Source: an uncultured bacterium (lineage in GTDB: Bacteria; Babelota; Babeliae; Babelales; Babelaceae). Taken from it: a stretch of 64,000 nucleotides of DNA. The DNA lies in the NCBI GenBank assembly GCA_963819815.1, contig CAWFXL010000001.1, positions 736,001 through 800,000 on the forward strand, in the 5' to 3' direction. The notes below the pieces were generated by a model. The model worked only from the letters and a program-made list of their open reading frames with translations. It made no database searches and had not been told where the DNA came from. Of the stretch, positions 8,353-61,637 are shown piece by piece. Position numbers and translations under genes: made by a program. The number at the start of each line of letters is the position of its first letter. Position 1 is the first letter of the stretch.

Positions 8353-8439
8353 CAGAAAGAAGACCTTGTTTTTGTTCACTTCTCTCAAAAAGAAGCCCTT
8401 GTTTTTATAGCTTTTTACAAAAAGAAGGCCTTCTTTTAT
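8353..8439. repeat. Three 22-bp pseudo-palindromic boxes upstream of AAA ATPase gene 1
   Basis: CAGAAAGAAGACCTTGTTTTTG (8353), CAAAAAGAAGCCCTTGTTTTTA (8386), CAAAAAGAAGGCCTTCTTTTAT (8418); periods 33 and 32 bp. Confidence 0.85.
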
Positions 8440-8467
8440 TGACTTTAGACCATTCTTAGCCTATAGT
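8439..8467 (+). promoter_or_regulatory. Sigma70 promoter of AAA ATPase gene 1
   Basis: TTGACT, 17 bp, TATAGT. Confidence 0.75.
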
Positions 8468-8491
8468 ACCAGTAATTACAAAGGATATCCT

Positions 8492-9859
8492 ATGCAAAGA
8501 ACTGGAATAAGCTTCCTACAAAATTGGCTCCACTCCTCTAAGCGGTTGCCTCTTATCATCAGAGGTGCACGGCAAGTGGGTAAAACATGGCTTGTCAGAG
8601 AATTTGCCGCATCTCAAAATAAGAGATTAATAGAGGTGAATCTCGAAGATATCCCCGAAGTATTACCCGCATTTTCTTCGAATGATCCTCAGGTCATTCT
8701 TCAAAAATTAAGTTCCGCTTTTGAAACCACCATAGATCCTTCTGAGTCACTCTTGTTTATAGATGAGATACAAGAAGCTCCAGAAGTTTTCTCAAAGTTA
8801 CGTTGGTTTGCTGAAAAAATGCCTGAGTTGCCCGTTATTGCAGCAGGATCTCTTTTAGAATTTGTTCTTGGGAAAGCTCAGATAAGTATGCCTGTAGGAC
8901 GAATCAACTACATGTACTTAGAACCCTTGTCATTTGAGGAATTTTTGCTGGCTCATGGAAGAGATAACCTCGTCGCTCAGATGAAAGAGTTCACCTTCAA
9001 GTCGGGCATCTTAGAACTTACTCACCAAAAGCTTATATCATTATTTAAAGAATATCTGATCGTAGGTGGGATGCCTGCAGCAGTAGATATTTGGTCGAGT
9101 AGTCGCTCTTTTGAAGCCCTTAGTCAAAAGCATCGGGATATTCTCCGTTCCTATCGAGACGACTTTGGTAAATATGGCGGAAGGATCCCCTCAGCTCGTT
9201 TTAATGAAATCGTAGATACAGTTCCCAAAGATTTAGGTAGAAAATTTGTCTATAGTTCAGTAAGCAGAAAGGTAAGTATCCCTATAATTAAGGAAACTCT
9301 GGCGCTTCTCTGCCAAGCGAGAGTTTGTCATAAAGTCTCAGGTGTTGCGGCTAATGGTATTCCCCTCGCAGCAGAGCCACTTAATCATTATCTTAAAGTT
9401 ATTCTTCTTGACGTTGGTTTAAGTTCGGCTGAACTTGGCCTTTCATTGAGTGAGCTTGATACGATGGAAGAGCTTGATTTAATCAATAAGGGTGGCATTG
9501 CAGAACAAGCAGTAGGTCAACTGTTACGTACCACTTTCCCTTTCTATCAAGAACCAGCCCTCTATTATTGGGTAAGCACTGACAAAGGAGCTTCAGCGGA
9601 AATTGATTATGTCATACAGCATGGGAGCAAAGTCATGCCCGTCGAGGTGAAAGCCGGTAGTTCAGGAAGCTTAAAGTCCTTACATCATTTTATGCATCTA
9701 AAGAAACTTTCACGGGCAGTCCGAATAAATTCAGGGCTACCTTTGTTATCAGATATCAACGTCCAAGATACTCAGGGTAATCCCGTCAAATACAAACTTC
9801 TTTCAATCCCCCTGTATCTTACCGGAGAACTTCATCGGTTACTTCAAGAGACAGCTTAG
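8492..9859 (+). CDS. AAA+ ATPase (AAA_14) with DUF4143 / PD-(D/E)xK-like C-terminus
   Basis: GARQVGKT, LFIDEIQ, VGGMP, DVGL, AEIDY...PVEVKAG. Confidence 0.9.
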   Translation: MQRTGISFLQNWLHSSKRLPLIIRGARQVGKTWLVREFAASQNKRLIEVNLEDIPEVLPAFSSNDPQVILQKLSSAFETTIDPSESLLFIDEIQEAPEVFSKLRWFAEKMPELPVIAAGSLLEFVLGKAQISMPVGRINYMYLEPLSFEEFLLAHGRDNLVAQMKEFTFKSGILELTHQKLISLFKEYLIVGGMPAAVDIWSSSRSFEALSQKHRDILRSYRDDFGKYGGRIPSARFNEIVDTVPKDLGRKFVYSSVSRKVSIPIIKETLALLCQARVCHKVSGVAANGIPLAAEPLNHYLKVILLDVGLSSAELGLSLSELDTMEELDLINKGGIAEQAVGQLLRTTFPFYQEPALYYWVSTDKGASAEIDYVIQHGSKVMPVEVKAGSSGSLKSLHHFMHLKKLSRAVRINSGLPLLSDINVQDTQGNPVKYKLLSIPLYLTGELHRLLQETA

Positions 9860-16573: not shown

Positions 16574-18634
16574 CTAAGCTACCTTATTAAAAACATATTT
16601 GTGCTGCCCAGATTCAAGTACGAGCTGCAGATCACCATCATGTTGCCGTGGCAAAAACTCAAAGCCTGCGAAGAGACCAGTGGTCAAGAGTAGTTTAAGG
16701 GTACCATCTTTTTCTCGTTTTTGGCCAAGTGAACCTTTCCAATCGCGAGCATCTAATTCAGCACCACCAGATATTTCTCGAATGTTAAGCTGTCCCAATC
16801 TTGGATGCATGTACGTTCCTACAAATTGTTTGAGCCATGCACTATCCGGTTTAAAAGTGATATCCTCAAGGTATTTTTCAAACCACTTTTTTTGTTGATC
16901 AACGCCAATTTTTACCATTTCCAGCGCTTGTGATTTGCCATCAAAAAGCATCTCCATACATTTACGTTTTACCGCCTGCGTAAAAACCGTAGCTTGCCGT
17001 GCATTGGTGAGTATTACAAGCCCTAGGTTATGTTCTGGAAGGAAAAACAACAGCGACGAGAATCCCATCGTCATGCCATCATGGCCTACCGATAAAACCC
17101 CATGATCGTTTTCGATCAAAAGCGCCAGTCCATAACTAAGCTTGTCGGTAATCTTTACCTGCGACTCACGACGCTTTAAAAGATTCTCTTCTGAGATAAC
17201 TCGCTTACCTTCGGCAGTAACGCCTTTATTGAGTTCAATCATCACATATTGAGCCATATCATGAACATTGGACCACGCGCCACCTGCAGGACGTATAGAC
17301 TCTACCCATTTTTCATCACTCACTGCTAACGGTAGGTTAGCGCCATGTAAGTCCATACCATGAGGTACTGCATGATCAACCTTTTCAACTCGGGCAAAAT
17401 CAAACGTAGTTGAAGTCATACCCAGAGGATCAAACACTCGTGATTGCATGACAGTATCGTATGCCTTACCAAGTCCACTTTGTTTATCAACCGAATATGC
17501 AGCACCATAGCCACCAGCAGCAACCATCATATTGCTGTACTGAAATGTTTCGCCAAAGCCGGTAGTCGGCTTCATGTCGCGCATCTCTTGTATGCGAAAC
17601 TCAGGAGTTCCCTTATCATAGTTAAAGAGAGCTTCTATATCCTGTCGCGGTATTCCCGTACTCGCAGAAACCATATGTTTCATCAACACCTGCTTAGTAG
17701 TAGCTTCATCACCCAAAGCAAAATTAGACATCACCTTGGTTACTGGGGTATCCCACGTAAATCGTCCTTCGTCAACCAGCCGTGCCATCATCAAAGTTGT
17801 GAGCGCTTTGGTGGTAGAACCGATCATGAAAACTGTTTTTGGAGTAACCTTTTCTGGTTTGCCAAGCTCACGTACACCAAAGCCTTGCTCAAAAATCAGT
17901 TTCCCGTCTTGCACGATACCTACGGCAACGCCAGGGATTGCACACTGTACCCGTACGTGCTCTACAAAATCCGTAAACTCTTTCAACTGTTTAGCAGTTA
18001 GCGTATGTACTTTTTTATGAGCAAACGATTCCTCTTTCATACCTGGAACTTTAAAACTCGTATTTATCAAAAGCACACCAGCCATACGCCGATCAAATGC
18101 AGCTTTCGTACCATCAATAAGTATGAGGTACCATCGTGTGCCAACTCTCCCTGCTGTGGCAAAAACAAGTCGCCCTTCTTGTGTTGATGTATCATAGAAA
18201 TAGGTGACTAGCTCATCCCACCCATCCTGGGGCACTTCTTGTGATGTATGCTGAATTGTCCGTGCAAAATTTGGTTGTGCTTGCTTCCATGCACTCAACA
18301 CTGCTTGCTCAGCGTTAGCCTCGTTATTTTCAATGAGCGTTACGGTTAATTCGCGATCTGGCTCTTCGAGTATAATCATCTCCGGACGCTGCGATACAAA
18401 CCAACCTTTCTCTGCAGTAAAGGTACAACCTGAAGCGGTGGTTCCTTGCGTATTTTGATCTAGTTTTTTAAAAGACATCGTATCCCTATTTTCGCCTGTA
18501 TTCTGAGTATCACTATCATCGGCTTGTAACACAATATTATTTTTCTTGGTCGTGGGTTTTTGGTAACCTGGCATGAATTCAGCCATACCTGCTACAAAAC
18601 CTAGTACAACCAATTTTGCATATTTTTTTAACAT
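16574..18634 (-). CDS. Serine hydrolase of the beta-lactamase/AmpC-like family with an extra N-terminal domain
   Basis: IPGVAVGIV, SxxK (GSTTK), YSN, PAGG, GHDG. Confidence 0.88.
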   Translation of the reverse strand: MLKKYAKLVVLGFVAGMAEFMPGYQKPTTKKNNIVLQADDSDTQNTGENRDTMSFKKLDQNTQGTTASGCTFTAEKGWFVSQRPEMIILEEPDRELTVTLIENNEANAEQAVLSAWKQAQPNFARTIQHTSQEVPQDGWDELVTYFYDTSTQEGRLVFATAGRVGTRWYLILIDGTKAAFDRRMAGVLLINTSFKVPGMKEESFAHKKVHTLTAKQLKEFTDFVEHVRVQCAIPGVAVGIVQDGKLIFEQGFGVRELGKPEKVTPKTVFMIGSTTKALTTLMMARLVDEGRFTWDTPVTKVMSNFALGDEATTKQVLMKHMVSASTGIPRQDIEALFNYDKGTPEFRIQEMRDMKPTTGFGETFQYSNMMVAAGGYGAAYSVDKQSGLGKAYDTVMQSRVFDPLGMTSTTFDFARVEKVDHAVPHGMDLHGANLPLAVSDEKWVESIRPAGGAWSNVHDMAQYVMIELNKGVTAEGKRVISEENLLKRRESQVKITDKLSYGLALLIENDHGVLSVGHDGMTMGFSSLLFFLPEHNLGLVILTNARQATVFTQAVKRKCMEMLFDGKSQALEMVKIGVDQQKKWFEKYLEDITFKPDSAWLKQFVGTYMHPRLGQLNIREISGGAELDARDWKGSLGQKREKDGTLKLLLTTGLFAGFEFLPRQHDGDLQLVLESGQHKYVFNKVA

Positions 18635-55549: not shown

Positions 55550-55635
55550 AAAAATCACGGGGGTGTTTTTGCAAAAAACTAGAAAAACACCCCCGTGATT
55601 TTTGAAAAACATGAGAAATCACGGGGGTGTTTTTT
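55550..55635. repeat. Three 22-bp boxes (forward, inverted, forward) upstream of AAA ATPase gene 2
   Basis: AAAAATCACGGGGGTGTTTTTG (55550), inverted GAAAAACACCCCCGTGATTTTT (55582), AGAAATCACGGGGGTGTTTTTT (55614); period 32 bp. Confidence 0.92.
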
Positions 55636-55662
55636 GACTCTGCTCAAAAAAGAAGCTACACT
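55634..55662 (+). promoter_or_regulatory. Sigma70 promoter of AAA ATPase gene 2
   Basis: TTGACT, 17 bp, TACACT; AAGGA RBS before ATG 55685. Confidence 0.72.
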
Positions 55663-55684: not shown

Positions 55685-57049
55685 ATGGAAAGAACTGCAC
55701 TTACATTTTTACGTCGTTGGCTTCATGAGAAAGGGCGGCTACCCTTGATTATTAGAGGGGCCCGGCAAGTAGGAAAAACTTGGGTGGTAAGGCGCCTGGC
55801 TGAGCTTGAGAACCGTGATCTCATCGAACTCAACCTCGAGTTTGAACCAGAATTGGAATCACTTTTTGTAAATAATGATCCTAAAGCCGTTTTGCTAAGC
55901 ATTGAAGATATACTCAATAGAAAAGTTGATCCCTCCAAAGCTCTCCTTTTTATAGATGAAATTCAAGCAAAGCCGCATGTTATTGCGAAGTTACGCTGGT
56001 TTGCCGAGATGATGCCAGAATTGCCTGTTATATCTGCGGGATCTCTTTTGGAATTTGCTCTAGGTACCTACGTTATGAGCATGCCAGTGGGCCGAATCGA
56101 ATACCTATATTTAGAGCCGCTATCATTTGAAGAGTTCTTAATGGCCAATCAGAAAGATGGTTTCGTAAGATTAATCAAGAATTTTCAATGGGGAGATGAG
56201 CTCCCTTTCATTGCACATCAACAGCTTACAAGCCTCTTTCATGAATATATCATAGTTGGGGGGATGCCTGCCGCAATAGAAAAATGGATAGAAACACGAT
56301 CTCTTGAAGAAGTTGGACGTGTTCATCGAAGGATAGTCTCCACGTATAGAGAAGATTTTACCAAATATGGAACAAAAGTTTCTCCTGAGCTTATGAATAA
56401 AATGATACATTTTATTCCTCGGTCTCTTGGGGAAAAATTTGTGTATAGCCACGTTGATAAAGCAGCACCTCTCTATGCTGTGCAACGGGCTCTTACTGCA
56501 TTGCAAAAAGCTCGCATATGCCATATAGTGCACAGCACTGCTGCTAATGGAGTTCCTCTTGCAGCAGAGATTAATGAAAAATTTTTGAAAGCTATCTTTG
56601 TCGATGTAGGACTTTGTTCTGCATCACTCGAACTTTCACTGACGCAAATCGAGTCTACCGAGGATCTTACCCTCGTTAATAAAGGTGCCATAGCAGAGCA
56701 GGTTACTGGACAGCTCCTAAGAACAGTATTTCCGCTAACTCAAGATCCTCAGCTATATTATTGGGTGAGGCTGCATCAAGAAAAAGGTGCTTCAGCCGAA
56801 ATTGATTACGTCATTGCTCAAGGAACTTTGCCGGTTCCTATCGAGGTTAAGTCTGGCGCTACGGGGTCGCTCAAATCGCTACATGTTTTCATGGAACTCA
56901 AGAAGCTTTCAAAAGCAGTGCGCGTCTGTTCTAGAATTCCGAACATCTCACAGATAGAGTTTAAAAGCACAGCAAGTACGACAGTTCGTTATGAACTCAG
57001 GTCTATCCCATTTTATCTGCTCGGTGAAATTCATCGTTTGCTCACCTAG
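55685..57049 (+). CDS. AAA+ ATPase (AAA_14) with DUF4143 / PD-(D/E)xK-like C-terminus, paralog of 8492-9859
   Basis: GARQVGKT, LFIDEIQ, VGGMP, DVGL, AEIDY...PIEVKSG; start set by alignment to the paralog. Confidence 0.9.
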   Translation: MERTALTFLRRWLHEKGRLPLIIRGARQVGKTWVVRRLAELENRDLIELNLEFEPELESLFVNNDPKAVLLSIEDILNRKVDPSKALLFIDEIQAKPHVIAKLRWFAEMMPELPVISAGSLLEFALGTYVMSMPVGRIEYLYLEPLSFEEFLMANQKDGFVRLIKNFQWGDELPFIAHQQLTSLFHEYIIVGGMPAAIEKWIETRSLEEVGRVHRRIVSTYREDFTKYGTKVSPELMNKMIHFIPRSLGEKFVYSHVDKAAPLYAVQRALTALQKARICHIVHSTAANGVPLAAEINEKFLKAIFVDVGLCSASLELSLTQIESTEDLTLVNKGAIAEQVTGQLLRTVFPLTQDPQLYYWVRLHQEKGASAEIDYVIAQGTLPVPIEVKSGATGSLKSLHVFMELKKLSKAVRVCSRIPNISQIEFKSTASTTVRYELRSIPFYLLGEIHRLLT

Positions 57050-57425: not shown

Positions 57426-60400
57426 ATGATAAGACCTTCTTATGTTGTCATACTAGTAGGATTGCTTGCCATCCCTCATCTTACTTTGCCTTCGTGCGCA
57501 GCAGTTCTTAAAAAAGAGGCTGCTCTTGTCGCTCCCCAAAAGCGCGAGTACGCCCTGCTTACACCTGAGCAACTTCAGAACATGATACATATCCATCACG
57601 AACTTCTCACAGTAGAAGACTCTTTGACTAAAAATTCTGAAACCTGGTATACGATTGCTAATGAATACCGACACCGCTTTGACCATCAAGAAGCGATCTC
57701 TTTTTCTACCCAAATCTTTGAGCTACTTACAGAGCGAAGCTCTTCTCTCGCTATCAAAACGCATAGTGCTCGATGCCTTGCAAAAATTATGCAAAGAAAC
57801 GGCCAGTTACCAGAAGCTCACGACTGGGCTATGAAGGCTGAAGCGTGGGGTCGTACTACTTCAGCGTATGGCGAAACACTCTATTTCTTGGGCTACCACT
57901 ATTACTACACACTAAAAAATCCTAATCAAGGAATAGCATGGTATCTCAAAGCACGACAATGGTCCTCCAATGGTAAGGATATGAAAATCTTTATTCAATC
58001 TCTTATCAGCCTTGGTAACGCATACTATAAAGATGAAGCGCATCAGACAGATGCACAGTGGTTTGTAGAAGCTCTCGAAGCGTTAACCATCTATAGGGAT
58101 ACAGAGCTCATAGCAAAAGCATATATCGGCCTTGGTAACGCCAGATACACCGATAAAAAGCATAAAAACCACGCTCAGTGGTACCTTAATGCCCTTGACG
58201 AACTTGGCCAAGACGGTGACATAACACTACGAGCAGCAGCTCTTATCGGTCTTGGCAATGCTCGCTATACTGATAAAAAAAAAGGACGAGAATATTGGTT
58301 TAAGCAAGCCCTTCAAGTACTCGGTCCCCGCGGCGACAAAAATCTAAGGGCTCAGGCACTCATGGGACTTGGTAACATCAAACATACTGATGAAACACAT
58401 AGAAGCCACACATGGTATCTCGAGGCACGTGAGCTACTTGGCGAAAATGGTGACAAAGACTTACGAGCACGAGCCTGCATTGGCCTTGGTAACGCCAAAT
58501 ATACTGATAATACTGATAGTAAGCTTAGCACCGATGCCCAATGGTATCTGAACGCGCTCAATTTGCTAGGCAAAGATGGCACTAGTAACCTACAGGTCCA
58601 AGCTTTCATCGGCCTTGGCAATGTCAGACATACTGATGATACTCATCCCAAAAGTCATGCCTGGTATCTCGAGGCCCTTGCACTACTAGGTAAAAATGGT
58701 GATAAAGAACTACGAGCACGAGCCTGCATCGGCCTTGGTAATGCCAAAGAACCCCATGCTACTGGCCAAAGCTACGTTCAGTGGTATGTAGATGCGCTCG
58801 GCTTATTGGACAAAGAGGAGGACAGAGATCTCAAAGCGCAAACTCTTATGAGACTTGGCCATGCCAGACATACTGACGCTCAACACCCTAAACAAGCCGA
58901 TTGGTACGTAGATGCTCGTAATACACTTAGTAAAGAAGGCACCAGAGATTTACGAGCTGAGGTTTGTATTTGCCTAGGCAATACGCGATATGTTGATGAT
59001 GAGATTTGGTCAAGTGAGCAGTGGTTTCTAGAAGCTCTCACAATTCTTGGCGACGACGGGGATAGAAGTCTTTATGCGCAAGCTCTCATTGGACTTGGAA
59101 ACGCTCAATACACCAACAAAAAACGTGACCAATCCTCATGGTTTAGAGAAGCACTCCAGATACTTGGTAAGAATGGGGTCACTACCCTTCGGGCCCAGGC
59201 TCTGATTGGCCTGGGGAATACTAGATATGTTGATAAGGAACATCCAACACAAGCCATATGGTACCAAGAAGCACTTATGGTACTTGAAGCAGAATCGCAC
59301 GGTGCCCTATATGCTCAAGCTCTTATCGGTCTTGGTAACTATTATTGTGGACAAAGAGTTAACGCCAAAGGAATAACCTATTTTCAGCAAGCTTTAACGT
59401 GTGCCCCTGCAGAAATGCATCCTTCCATTCAGCAAAAGATAGACCATTCGCAGGAAATAATAAGTACAGGCTCAGTTTGCACAAGCATTGATGCAGACCT
59501 AGAGACCCTTCTCATTCTCAAGGAAGATAGGGATGTGACCGTCCGAGCACAAGCTCTTATTAGACTTGCTAATTGGGGATATACTGACAGGGCTCATCCT
59601 AAAGAAGTTGATTGGTACCTCGATGCACTAGAGGTGCTCGGCACAAGCGGCAGTAACGATCTTCGAGCACGAGCGCTTATTGGGCTTGGCAATAAAAAAT
59701 ATAGCACTAAGACACGTGATAAGAATTACTGGTTTGTGCAAGCGCTAAATCTCCTCGAAAATGATGGTGATCCAGTACTCCAGGCAAAGGCTCTTATTGG
59801 CCTTGGCAATGGCAAATATTTCCATAGTGGAGGACGAGCTCACTGGTATCTGAAAGCACTCTCCCTACTCGGTGAAAATGCCCCCTCTGAAATCTCTGCT
59901 CAAGCACTTATTGGACTTGGCAATGCCCGATATACCGACAATACACATACGAGCAATACTCAATGGTATGTTGAAGCACTCTCCATACTTGGCAAGGATC
60001 GCGAAAAGAACTTACAAGCCAGAGCTCTTATCGGTCTTGGTAACGCTCGGCATGTTGATGAAACACATGCGAATCATGCCCTGTGGTTCCTCGATGCATT
60101 GAGAGTTCTTGGCGAAGATGGCGATAGAGATGTTCAAGCAAAAGCTTTCATTGGCCTTGGCAATGCTCAATATGTCGAGAAGGACAAAGAGCGAAGTACA
60201 TGGTATCTAAAGGCACTCGATGTGTTGGGTAATGACGGCAATCAAGATCTTCAGGCTCAAGCTCTTATCGGTCTTGGCAACTCTCGGTATGTGGACGAAA
60301 CCCATCCAGATCATGCTCAGTGGTACCATGATGCCCTCACGAAGCTCGGTGATGCAGGTGATAAAACTGTACGTGCTAACGCGCTGGTCGGACTTGGAAA

Positions 60401-61637
60401 TCACCACTGCTGGACAAGTGATAACGCACATGGCGTATCCTTTTATCAGCAGGCTTTAGTCTATGCATCAGAGGAAATGAAAGACAACATTCAACAAAAG
60501 ATAGACCAGGCTCAGACCTATGTTGAGCGTGAAAAATCCCGTATTATACGTCTTGATAAGCTCAAGAAACTCGTTAATAATGGCGACACAGCTCTACGAG
60601 CTCAAGCGCTGATTGAACTTGGTAAGCTAATCCATACGGACGAAACCCACCAAACTCCAGCTGCTTGGTTCCTCGATGCACTGAACGCCCTGGGTGATAC
60701 TGGCAATAGAGGACTTCGAGCTCAAGCGTGTATAGAACTTGGCAATACCAACTTTACTGATTCTCGACATACCCAAGTTCAGTGGTATCTCCATGCTCTC
60801 ACCATGCTCGATAGAGATCACGATCACGACCTCTATGCTGAAGCCCTTATAGGTCTTGGGGCTACAGACTACGTCGATGATACTCACAAAACTCAGGCTG
60901 ACTGGTTCTTAGATGCGCTCAGAATCCTAGGTAACGACGGTACTATAAGTCTCCGAGTAAAAGCTTACCTTGCTCTTGGCAATGGTCAGTATAGAGGTAT
61001 ACATAATGAATATGCTAATAGCTCTCATTGGTATCTAGAAGCACTCAGAATACTTGGCGATAAAGGTGATAACGTATTACGAGCTACCGCATGCATGGGT
61101 CTTGGTCGGGTGAGGTATTTAGATGCAACTCATACCCACAGCGGTCAATGGTACCTAGCTGCGCTTGCCATTCTTACTAACGGTGATGATACAAACCTAG
61201 AAGCTCAAGCTCTTCTTAACCTTGGTGACCTCAGATACCGGTGTAACCACCACCCTCCGACCTATTGGTACGAAAAAGCACTTACCGTTCTCGACAGAGG
61301 TGGCAGTAGAACTATACGAGCCCAAGTCCTTATAGGCCTCGGAGACTACTACTGTACTTGCGTGCCAAACGATATTCCGTTAGGAATAAAGAAATATCAG
61401 GAGGCTTTAGCGCATGCTCCAGAAGACCTGCAGGTCCTTATTAGAGAAAAAATAAACGCAAGGCAACCGTCTAGTCGACAAAAGAATGGGGGGGTTTTAG
61501 CTCAGGCTCCAGAGCACCTGCAATTCCTTACGAGAACAAAAAGGGAAACTCAGCAAGCAACTATTCGACAAGTAAGCCTTTTGCAGCGTGTCCAGCAGAT
61601 AAAAGACAAAATCGGCCAACCTGTCAGCTCTAAATAA
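57426..61637 (+). CDS. 1403-aa secreted TPR-like solenoid protein with 27 LGN-type repeats of about 40 aa
   Basis: Consensus RAQALIGLGNARY-x-D-x2-H...WYL-x-AL-x2-LG-x2-GD-x2-L; hydrophobic N-terminus; AAGGA RBS. Confidence 0.88.
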   Translation: MIRPSYVVILVGLLAIPHLTLPSCAAVLKKEAALVAPQKREYALLTPEQLQNMIHIHHELLTVEDSLTKNSETWYTIANEYRHRFDHQEAISFSTQIFELLTERSSSLAIKTHSARCLAKIMQRNGQLPEAHDWAMKAEAWGRTTSAYGETLYFLGYHYYYTLKNPNQGIAWYLKARQWSSNGKDMKIFIQSLISLGNAYYKDEAHQTDAQWFVEALEALTIYRDTELIAKAYIGLGNARYTDKKHKNHAQWYLNALDELGQDGDITLRAAALIGLGNARYTDKKKGREYWFKQALQVLGPRGDKNLRAQALMGLGNIKHTDETHRSHTWYLEARELLGENGDKDLRARACIGLGNAKYTDNTDSKLSTDAQWYLNALNLLGKDGTSNLQVQAFIGLGNVRHTDDTHPKSHAWYLEALALLGKNGDKELRARACIGLGNAKEPHATGQSYVQWYVDALGLLDKEEDRDLKAQTLMRLGHARHTDAQHPKQADWYVDARNTLSKEGTRDLRAEVCICLGNTRYVDDEIWSSEQWFLEALTILGDDGDRSLYAQALIGLGNAQYTNKKRDQSSWFREALQILGKNGVTTLRAQALIGLGNTRYVDKEHPTQAIWYQEALMVLEAESHGALYAQALIGLGNYYCGQRVNAKGITYFQQALTCAPAEMHPSIQQKIDHSQEIISTGSVCTSIDADLETLLILKEDRDVTVRAQALIRLANWGYTDRAHPKEVDWYLDALEVLGTSGSNDLRARALIGLGNKKYSTKTRDKNYWFVQALNLLENDGDPVLQAKALIGLGNGKYFHSGGRAHWYLKALSLLGENAPSEISAQALIGLGNARYTDNTHTSNTQWYVEALSILGKDREKNLQARALIGLGNARHVDETHANHALWFLDALRVLGEDGDRDVQAKAFIGLGNAQYVEKDKERSTWYLKALDVLGNDGNQDLQAQALIGLGNSRYVDETHPDHAQWYHDALTKLGDAGDKTVRANALVGLGNHHCWTSDNAHGVSFYQQALVYASEEMKDNIQQKIDQAQTYVEREKSRIIRLDKLKKLVNNGDTALRAQALIELGKLIHTDETHQTPAAWFLDALNALGDTGNRGLRAQACIELGNTNFTDSRHTQVQWYLHALTMLDRDHDHDLYAEALIGLGATDYVDDTHKTQADWFLDALRILGNDGTISLRVKAYLALGNGQYRGIHNEYANSSHWYLEALRILGDKGDNVLRATACMGLGRVRYLDATHTHSGQWYLAALAILTNGDDTNLEAQALLNLGDLRYRCNHHPPTYWYEKALTVLDRGGSRTIRAQVLIGLGDYYCTCVPNDIPLGIKKYQEALAHAPEDLQVLIREKINARQPSSRQKNGGVLAQAPEHLQFLTRTKRETQQATIRQVSLLQRVQQIKDKIGQPVSSK

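Follow-up and report, generated by a model that had tools for sequence, protein, structure and literature searches.

The DNA analysed here is a 64,000-nucleotide stretch (hereafter the window) of contig CAWFXL010000001.1 from an uncultured bacterium of the Babelaceae, covering contig positions 736,001 to 800,000 of the forward strand. It carries two related genes, gene 1 and its paralog, each of which encodes an AAA_14 ATPase fused to a DUF4143 domain and is preceded by an array of three near-palindromic boxes that ends at a predicted promoter. These arrays, their distribution across the gene family and their probable function are the subject of this study. The features of the two loci, in window coordinates, are as follows.

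8355..8372, no strand: gene 1 box 1, an 18-bp quasi-palindrome with centre AGACCT
8388..8405, no strand: gene 1 box 2, centre AGCCCT, 33 bp after box 1
8420..8437, no strand: gene 1 box 3, a perfect palindrome with centre AGGCCT, 32 bp after box 2
8439..8467, plus strand: predicted sigma-70 promoter of gene 1, TTGACT-17-TATAGT (consensus scan, 10/12)
8492..9859, plus strand: gene 1, 455 aa, AAA_14 and DUF4143 (Pfam), PADLOC PDC-S01 with E 1.8e-143
8492..8947, plus strand: P-loop NTPase domain of gene 1 (Walker A GARQVGKT, Walker B LFIDE, R137)
9176..9409, plus strand: probable winged-helix domain of gene 1, residues 229-306 (secondary structure of the model)
9479..9856, plus strand: PD-(D/E)xK nuclease-type domain of gene 1 (E338, D372, E385, K387; motif in the sequence)
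55552..55569, no strand: paralog box 1, centre CGGGGG
55584..55601, no strand: paralog box 2, inverted relative to boxes 1 and 3
55616..55633, no strand: paralog box 3, directly adjoined by the -35 hexamer with no gap
55634..55662, plus strand: predicted promoter of the paralog, TTGACT-17-TACACT (consensus scan, 9/12)
55685..57049, plus strand: paralog, 454 aa, ATG at 55685, 55% identical to gene 1, PDC-S01 with E 9.9e-143

The initial annotation of this DNA had placed three boxes before gene 1, starting at 8353, 8386 and 8418, with a TTGACT-17-TATAGT promoter at the last of them. All three boxes are present, with start-to-start spacings of 33 and 32 bp, and when the 160-nt upstream regions were dinucleotide-shuffled, none of 150 versions of either one matched the real three-copy likeness (16 and 18 of 18 positions in the real arrays, compared to at most 13 in the shuffles). 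Box 3 forms nine of nine palindrome pairs and ends 1 nt before the -35 hexamer TTGACT (8439-8444), which is followed by the -10 hexamer TATAGT (8462-8467), both hexamers of this predicted promoter being assigned by consensus match. The same geometry had been claimed for the paralog, and there too we find three boxes at spacings of 32 and 32 bp with TTGACT after the last; its middle box, however, is the reverse complement of the outer two and is complementary to box 1 at 21 of 21 positions. The paralog had also been credited with a different core. Its central bases do differ, but the outer 12 bases are common to both arrays, and a single frame, AAAA[CG]A-N6-T[CG]TTTT, accommodates each of the six boxes with at most one mismatch. 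On average 5.7 of 18 bases differ between the two arrays, nearly all of them central. At the same tolerance the frame has eight matches in the window against 1.9 expected, and six of the eight are these boxes. The boxes at gene 1 and the paralog are real.

Upstream regions of homologs were drawn from the bacterium's own phylum, the phylum of a Protochlamydia record and one gammaproteobacterial order, and a region was scored as positive when two 18-mers alike at 15 or more positions, in either orientation, lay 31-34 bp apart within 200 nt. Among close homologs (at least 45% identity, dereplicated) 102 of 124 were positive, as were 28 of 34 distant homologs, compared to 2 of 126 and 1 of 33, respectively, in the downstream control; these counts describe prevalence and carry no P value, since kin are not independent. 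Phased repeats are thus not generally lacking before homologs of gene 1, and their modal spacing is 33 bp. The same test on 718 upstream regions of the bacterium's own genome gave 22 positives, and in 15 of these the gene that follows is of the AAA_14 or ATPase_2 type. A site matrix trained on 136 boxes from other genomes was scanned over the 1.6-Mb contig and ranked gene 1 boxes 1, 2 and 3 at places 9, 1 and 2, and the paralog boxes at places 17, 17 and 19. The scan found nine site pairs at 32-33 bp in the contig, all of which lie at four paralog promoters and one gene relic; the variant box of a fifth paralog was missed by the matrix.

The box changes with the protein. One subfamily keeps its box frame in three phyla, other subfamilies in the same genome have different repeats, and the mismatch between boxes drops from 5.0 to 2.7 of 18 as protein identity climbs from below 50% to above 80%. 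Within an array the boxes differ by 1.45 mismatches. The array is a real, widespread element, and these comparisons suggest that it is a trait of the family, most likely bound by the product of the gene that it precedes.

For the promoter geometry, the gene 1 subfamily was represented by 78 loci, namely the 91 of 124 with a good box call minus 13 of a distinct gammaproteobacterial clade. A promoter was called in 45 of them, in 30 of which the last box ends 1 nt before the -35 hexamer, and in 43 within -2 to +3 nt of it. A sister subfamily, termed subfamily 2 and about 38% identical to gene 1, was assembled from 110 loci fetched from 153 matches, plus earlier loci, giving 124 after dereplication and 117 with called sites. 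Its site is TTGAWTTTYRACCAW, present in 2-6 copies at a 33-bp pitch. Both promoter hexamers lie inside the array in 32 of the 51 promoters called in subfamily 2, and in 58 of 117 loci fewer than 20 nt separate the last site from the start codon. In the gammaproteobacterial clade (L091, L172-L186), two boxes of the type AAAATATACCTGTATATTTT, 32-33 bp apart, straddle an extended -10 promoter; they end about 16 nt before the start codon, and the second box overlaps TATAAT.

The 15-nt spacers between the boxes of close-subfamily loci are themselves weakly symmetric, with TC at positions -5/-4 and GA at +4/+5 of the box. Given this symmetry, the footprint may extend into the -35 hexamer itself.

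The proteins of gene 1 and the paralog both score above the Pfam cut-offs for AAA_14 and DUF4143 and match the PADLOC PDC-S01 profiles over their full length; neither matched any NCBIfam family. The accessible text of PMC3424549 counts DUF4143 among the PD-(D/E)XK families whose function is unknown. The residues K31, D91, E92 and R137 are invariant in 78 of 78 close homologs, and E338, D372, E385 and K387 are kept in 77-78 of 78, while the Walker A and B motifs, R137 and the nuclease residues are kept in 114-117 of the 117 subfamily 2 loci. The full-length structure model of gene 1 has a mean predicted local distance difference test score (pLDDT) of 92.3. Over residues 1-316, its top fold matches are 2qen (Z 16.6, root mean square deviation (RMSD) 4.5, 266 residues aligned) and 2fna (Z 15.6, RMSD 4.0, 261 residues aligned), which likewise rank first in Foldseek. 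Plant resistosomes and Avs5 follow at Z 11-14, and Cdc6 (1fnn) matches residues 1-208 only, at Z 10.9. By its matches to 2qen and 2fna, the protein appears to contain the NTPase, helical and winged-helix module of STAND NTPases of the SSO/PH type. A sequence search of solved structures returned short P-loop matches only, and a protein atlas search returned only leads that were unnamed or scored below 0.9.

Residues 229-306 are probably a winged helix. In the model, this region has a helix-helix-helix-hairpin topology, with helices at 235-246 and 263-275 and strands at 279-285 and 296-305, and it falls inside the span aligned to 2qen and 2fna; no helix-turn-helix (HTH) family of Pfam was matched among 42 family members. 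In the gene 1 subfamily, residues 259-265 are small and variable, and K251, Y254, K267, N288-G289, P291 and K302 are near-constant.

The initial annotation had further supposed that this helix and the boxes evolve together. In the gene 1 subfamily no such relation was found, for residues 253-276 and the box do not covary across these 78 close homologs (the partial r averages -0.04); a window in the wing, at 277-288, peaks at 0.29, with a max-window P of 0.00-0.06 in tree simulations. In subfamily 2, by contrast, one residue does track a base of the site. All 16 site positions were compared with 430 residues, and the top three pairs, as well as six of the ten best, fall in the winged-helix region, which makes up 18% of the columns (null P 0.00-0.02 for the top-10 count, 60 simulations per rate). 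The best pair joins site position 12 to the residue that aligns with 262, where the predicted recognition helix begins: C occurs with R in 86 rows and with K in three, and non-C occurs with Q, K or T in 28 and never with R, so that 114 of 117 rows agree. Arginine contacting the G of a G-C pair is a classic readout. The second pair links T/A at position 15 to H/F/Y versus any other amino acid at residue 232; 103 of 109 rows agree after eight ties were dropped, compared to 91 for the next-best column. The third pair joins position 11 to residue 253. A window test in subfamily 2 was not relied on, its null having a weaker tree signal than the data (r 0.22 versus 0.45). Altogether, the pairs are good suggestive evidence, short of proof, for direct readout by the winged helix in subfamily 2.

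Each paralog had also been expected to bind its own private array, an expectation that the comparisons do not support. Besides the shared outer 12 bases, the difference of 5.7 of 18 between the gene 1 and paralog boxes compares to 4.9 for random pairs at equal protein distance, and co-resident paralogs are no more divergent than matched cross-genome pairs (4.96 in 29 within-genome pairs versus 4.69, P ~0.2); orthogonal private operators for co-resident paralogs were thus not detected. The two gene copies are probably without fully private sites. Since the frame is shared and the near-constant winged-helix residues would fit its readout, the gene 1 and paralog proteins are expected to cross-bind in part, while the preference of the gene 1 clade for a GGCC centre may confer some binding preference. 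With about 31 such genes in a 1.6-Mb genome, cross-talk between paralogs is a real question. Avoidance of the frame as a restriction site was considered separately and rejected, as the genome shows no depletion of the frame (21 seen versus about 9 expected).

We propose that the array is probably an autorepression operator of a solitary STAND-like ATPase-nuclease. That the gene's own protein is the binder is very probable, whichever function the array has. The protein, comprising the ATPase, winged-helix and nuclease domains, would bind each 18-bp palindrome through the predicted winged helix, presumably as one dimer per palindrome, and neighbouring dimers, about three helical turns apart, could touch through their ATPase bodies and bind cooperatively. 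Sitting on the array beside the predicted -35 hexamer, the protein would repress its own transcription, which would keep a nuclease without a partner scarce until a trigger, perhaps a nucleotide state or invading DNA, releases or activates it. In the gene 1 subfamily the protein would mainly read the shared outer frame, with the central 6 bp of the box tuning affinity, and paralogs would probably cross-repress in part. A broader formulation, offered tentatively, is that PDC-S01 might in general be its own sequence-specific repressor on an array of 33-bp pitch, with a winged-helix code in which Arg262 reads a G-C pair and residue 232 a flanking base; the array would silence the gene and store the nuclease, and its loss or titration would unleash the nuclease, as in a one-gene addiction or sensing module.

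Several observations weigh against autorepression through the winged helix. The isolated model of the winged-helix region is poor (pLDDT 56.7), and its matches are weak, with a best Z of 4.3, although many of them are winged helices. For the gene 1 subfamily, none of the residue-base pairs exceeds the null (P 0.90-0.97 for the max z), and the wing (residues 271-306) was rejected as a specificity element, as its signal was not replicated in subfamily 2 (wing mean 0.002). In subfamily 2 the pairs were selected from many as the best-scoring ones, and the definition of the position-12 trait was adjusted after a first look. The traits at positions 12 and 15 change just 5 and 11 times on the tree, and the independent pairs number 2:0 and 5:0 (sign tests p 0.5 and 0.06), the figures for residue 232 coming from the version with H/F/Y grouped, as the single-residue version was uninformative; the maximum z is equalled in 20% of slow-rate simulations. 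Moreover, 22 of the 124 close homologs fail the strict repeat test, and at gene 1 the third box lies against the -35 hexamer without covering it, its centre falling near -45, a location at which activators also bind. Finally, the gene does not always accompany the array. When the strict two-box pattern was sought directly in the DNA of 401 genomes, 26 were positive, compared to none with a reversed control pattern; 17 of these loci have an intact gene just downstream, one an internally deleted gene, and eight no gene nearby. No close homolog was found elsewhere in the orphan-array genomes with the protein query used, the completeness of these genomes not being stated. Perfect arrays can therefore persist without their presumed binder.

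The location of box 3 leads directly to one alternative, in which the array acts as an activation-repression switch in the style of restriction-modification (R-M) controllers: a site beside the -35 hexamer would recruit RNA polymerase at low protein levels, and full occupancy would shut the promoter, delaying the nuclease after transfer. The fixed register of the last box to the -35 hexamer is what an activator needs, and a centre near -45 is by itself undecided. The subfamily 2 and gammaproteobacterial sites, however, cover the -10 and start region, which fits repression only and makes repression the common reading; nor is there a methyltransferase whose lag would need covering. We consider the switch unlikely. 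Repression, in addition, suits a nuclease without a partner gene.

It is rather improbable that the array is mainly a loading, storage or 'self' site of origin-, iteron- or attachment-like character, which would license oligomer assembly, local cutting or cassette movement, with the promoter position secondary. The 33-bp pitch is conserved across unrelated box sequences, Cdc6/Orc1 appears among the fold matches, the cassette is patchy, and arrays occur without a gene or, intact, beside an internally deleted one, all as such a site would predict. Yet the best folds are the STAND-type ATPases 2qen and 2fna rather than Cdc6, whose match stops at residue 208, and the array keeps a strict register to the -35 hexamer. 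Among close homologs, 119 of 121 loci have no box copy at the far end: the frame occurs within 300 nt downstream in two, and in neither does it resemble the locus's own box, so that matching sites at both ends were not seen. No recombinase or replication gene recurs among the neighbours in 68 loci, and three of the orphan-type arrays are plain gene-loss relics. The initial annotation had left the choice between autorepression and an iteron-like role; the comparative geometry favours autorepression, and the STAND-type fold and the lone gene in a variable chromosomal slot lend no support to an iteron or origin.

The least probable alternative, and a very unlikely one, leaves the protein uninvolved: the boxes would be read by a host regulator, or would be a structural by-product of A-tract bending or of tandem duplication of a promoter unit with gene conversion. 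The eight genomes with orphan arrays and no close homolog found would agree with it, one such array being separated by 95 nt from an AbiEi-type antitoxin gene downstream; in some arrays the TTGAC itself is part of a near-perfect 33-bp tandem unit, and the likeness within arrays could be explained by history alone. A host regulator is disfavoured because the box follows the protein subfamily across phyla and differs between subfamilies in one genome. Furthermore, paired sites occur nowhere else in the contig, spacers drift while boxes stay, and the residue-base tracking falls in the winged helix. As for the orphans, some can be put down to gene loss, since one shares its synteny with an intact locus, and arrays would outlast their genes if losing the operator first were toxic.

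A relic of this kind lies in the same contig and is given here in contig coordinates.

267682-268300: gene relic, comprising a two-box array, a promoter, a few first codons and the last codons of an internally deleted paralog

A third box, a near-perfect palindrome of about 34 bp, lies 298 bp upstream of it, and the region aligns with the related genome G001. Among the orphan arrays, the perfect two-box array at L330:1501-1551 has no ATPase gene near it; an AbiEi_2-family antitoxin gene follows 95 nt downstream, and the locus is possibly a replaced cassette. Further orphan arrays without a gene remnant are found at positions 1501-1551 of L336, L338, L343, L344, L349 and L351, and at 1801-1851 of L325 and L326; two of these are on viral contigs. 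Viral contigs gave three matches to the two-box pattern in all, none with the gene, and one of the three is a low-complexity repeat.

Gene 1 lies between glmM on one side and a Na+/H+ antiporter gene on the other, and the window neighbours further include an ABC ATPase and a HEAT/TPR protein. In the related genome G001, the DNA is 93% identical until the alignment ends at the glmM stop codon, and gene 1 is absent from all nine glmM or antiporter loci of same-genus genomes (0 of 9). The array and gene 1 are one accessory unit in a variable chromosomal slot. No neighbour family recurs in more than 4 of the 68 homolog loci with long flanks, and the sole larger cluster is an antisense frame of the ATPase-nuclease gene itself. 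The 1.6-Mb genome has 21 AAA_14 and 11 ATPase_2 matches, one of them common to both, that is, about 31 such genes; five of them are close paralogs, each with three boxes.

Other repeats in the same contig differ in arrangement. The eleven ATPase_2 (PDC-S27-like) genes (e.g. L190, L192, L196, L199, L200) have another repeat geometry: for 7 of the 11, the top-scoring direct 16-mer repeat upstream agrees at 14 or more of 16 positions and has a spacing of 50-55 bp, and none of the 11 has a direct repeat at 32-34 bp; 33 and 55 are both multiples of 11. Two divergent AAA_14 genes share an intergenic region with long palindromes (contig 927212-927474). Also positive in the 31-34-bp repeat test are L191 and L195 (contig 1018624 and 1271934), which represent a Schlafen AlbA_2 plus HATPase_c_4 gene and an HTH_3 gene; these repeats are probably operators of the genes that they precede. 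Elsewhere in the window, the HEAT/TPR repeat protein (1403 aa, 57426-61637, plus strand) is encoded just past the paralog, and a 686-aa protein with a serine beta-lactamase/penicillin-binding-like domain (16574-18634, minus strand) scores far under every class C cut-off.

The initial annotation had regarded this locus as a candidate for an undescribed system. That holds for the arrays, of which no published description was found in the open literature, subscription papers being largely outside its coverage; the gene itself belongs to a catalogued family, PADLOC PDC-S01 (AAA_14 plus DUF4143; COG1373), which it resembles in its full-length profile match and single-gene organization. According to the accessible part of PMC12988326, PDC-S01 is an ATPase fused to a PD-(D/E)xK domain and ranks fourth in frequency among the defence systems of prokaryotes, having been detected 29,494 times in bacteria and 9,986 times in archaea. 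What defines a PDC, according to the portion of the preprint available (bioRxiv 10.1101/2024.01.29.577857), is its embedding within a BREX, DISARM or type I R-M locus. As far as the accessible text of PMC12881386 goes, T4, T5 and T7 were used to challenge eight systems in E. coli B, a PDC-S01 and a PDC-S27 among them, and neither of these two is listed with the four protective ones. A Thermus AAA_14/DUF4143 gene is described, in the available sections of PMC4406477, as up 6.6-fold with a plasmid present, but it lies beside a CRISPR locus. The portions of the published accounts available to us contain no upstream array, operator or DNA-binding role, and the family is a defence candidate only. 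A cognate DNA site would be the first concrete substrate for the PDC-S01 family. Under self-repression, the presence or absence of the array in a clone would affect how strongly the gene is expressed and how toxic it is, a point that bears on the interpretation of defence screens. The nuclease itself might serve either defence or selfish persistence.

The proposed arrangement resembles known operators of defence-type genes. AbiEi and Rv2827c are autorepressed through several inverted repeats at their own promoter with cooperative binding (accessible text of PMC7319586), and BrxR, a WYL protein, has an operator of inverted repeats at the promoter of a defence-type gene (accessible text of PMC9122601). 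As in these operators and in C-boxes, the palindromes here lie at the gene's own promoter and are conserved with the gene. In the AbiEi and BrxR systems, however, the regulator is a separate antitoxin or repressor, whereas here the presumed binder is the ATPase-nuclease itself, no second gene is present, and the sites keep a fixed 33-bp pitch. The C proteins of type II R-M systems are small separate HTH proteins with an endonuclease and a methyltransferase nearby. They have diversified in step with their upstream palindromes, and a footprinting logic of the same kind was used to predict both (accessible text of PMC2632904). The ATPase-nuclease gene differs in having no recurring partner among the 68 loci.

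Archaeal Orc1/Cdc6 proteins likewise combine an ATPase with a winged helix and have repeated sites beside their own gene, and they appear in both fold searches of the gene 1 model. Their scores are lower (Z 10.6-10.9, with the STAND-type matches about 5 Z units higher), and 1fnn aligns over the NTPase part only. The family described here also differs in its fused nuclease domain, in its about 20 such genes in one bacterial genome, and in sites tied to the -35 hexamer; compared to Orc1/Cdc6 or Rep-iteron origins, the array fills a promoter and the gene sits in a variable chromosomal slot. The best structural matches are instead the archaeal STAND-type ATPases PAB2304 (2qen) and SSO1545 (2fna), together with NLR proteins and Avs5. 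The gene 1 protein differs from them in that it has no C-terminal repeat sensor and carries its effector at the C-terminus. To our knowledge, STAND proteins do not as a rule bind DNA sequence-specifically through the winged helix, and an effector that serves as its own repressor would, if true, extend the known roles of STAND-type winged helices.

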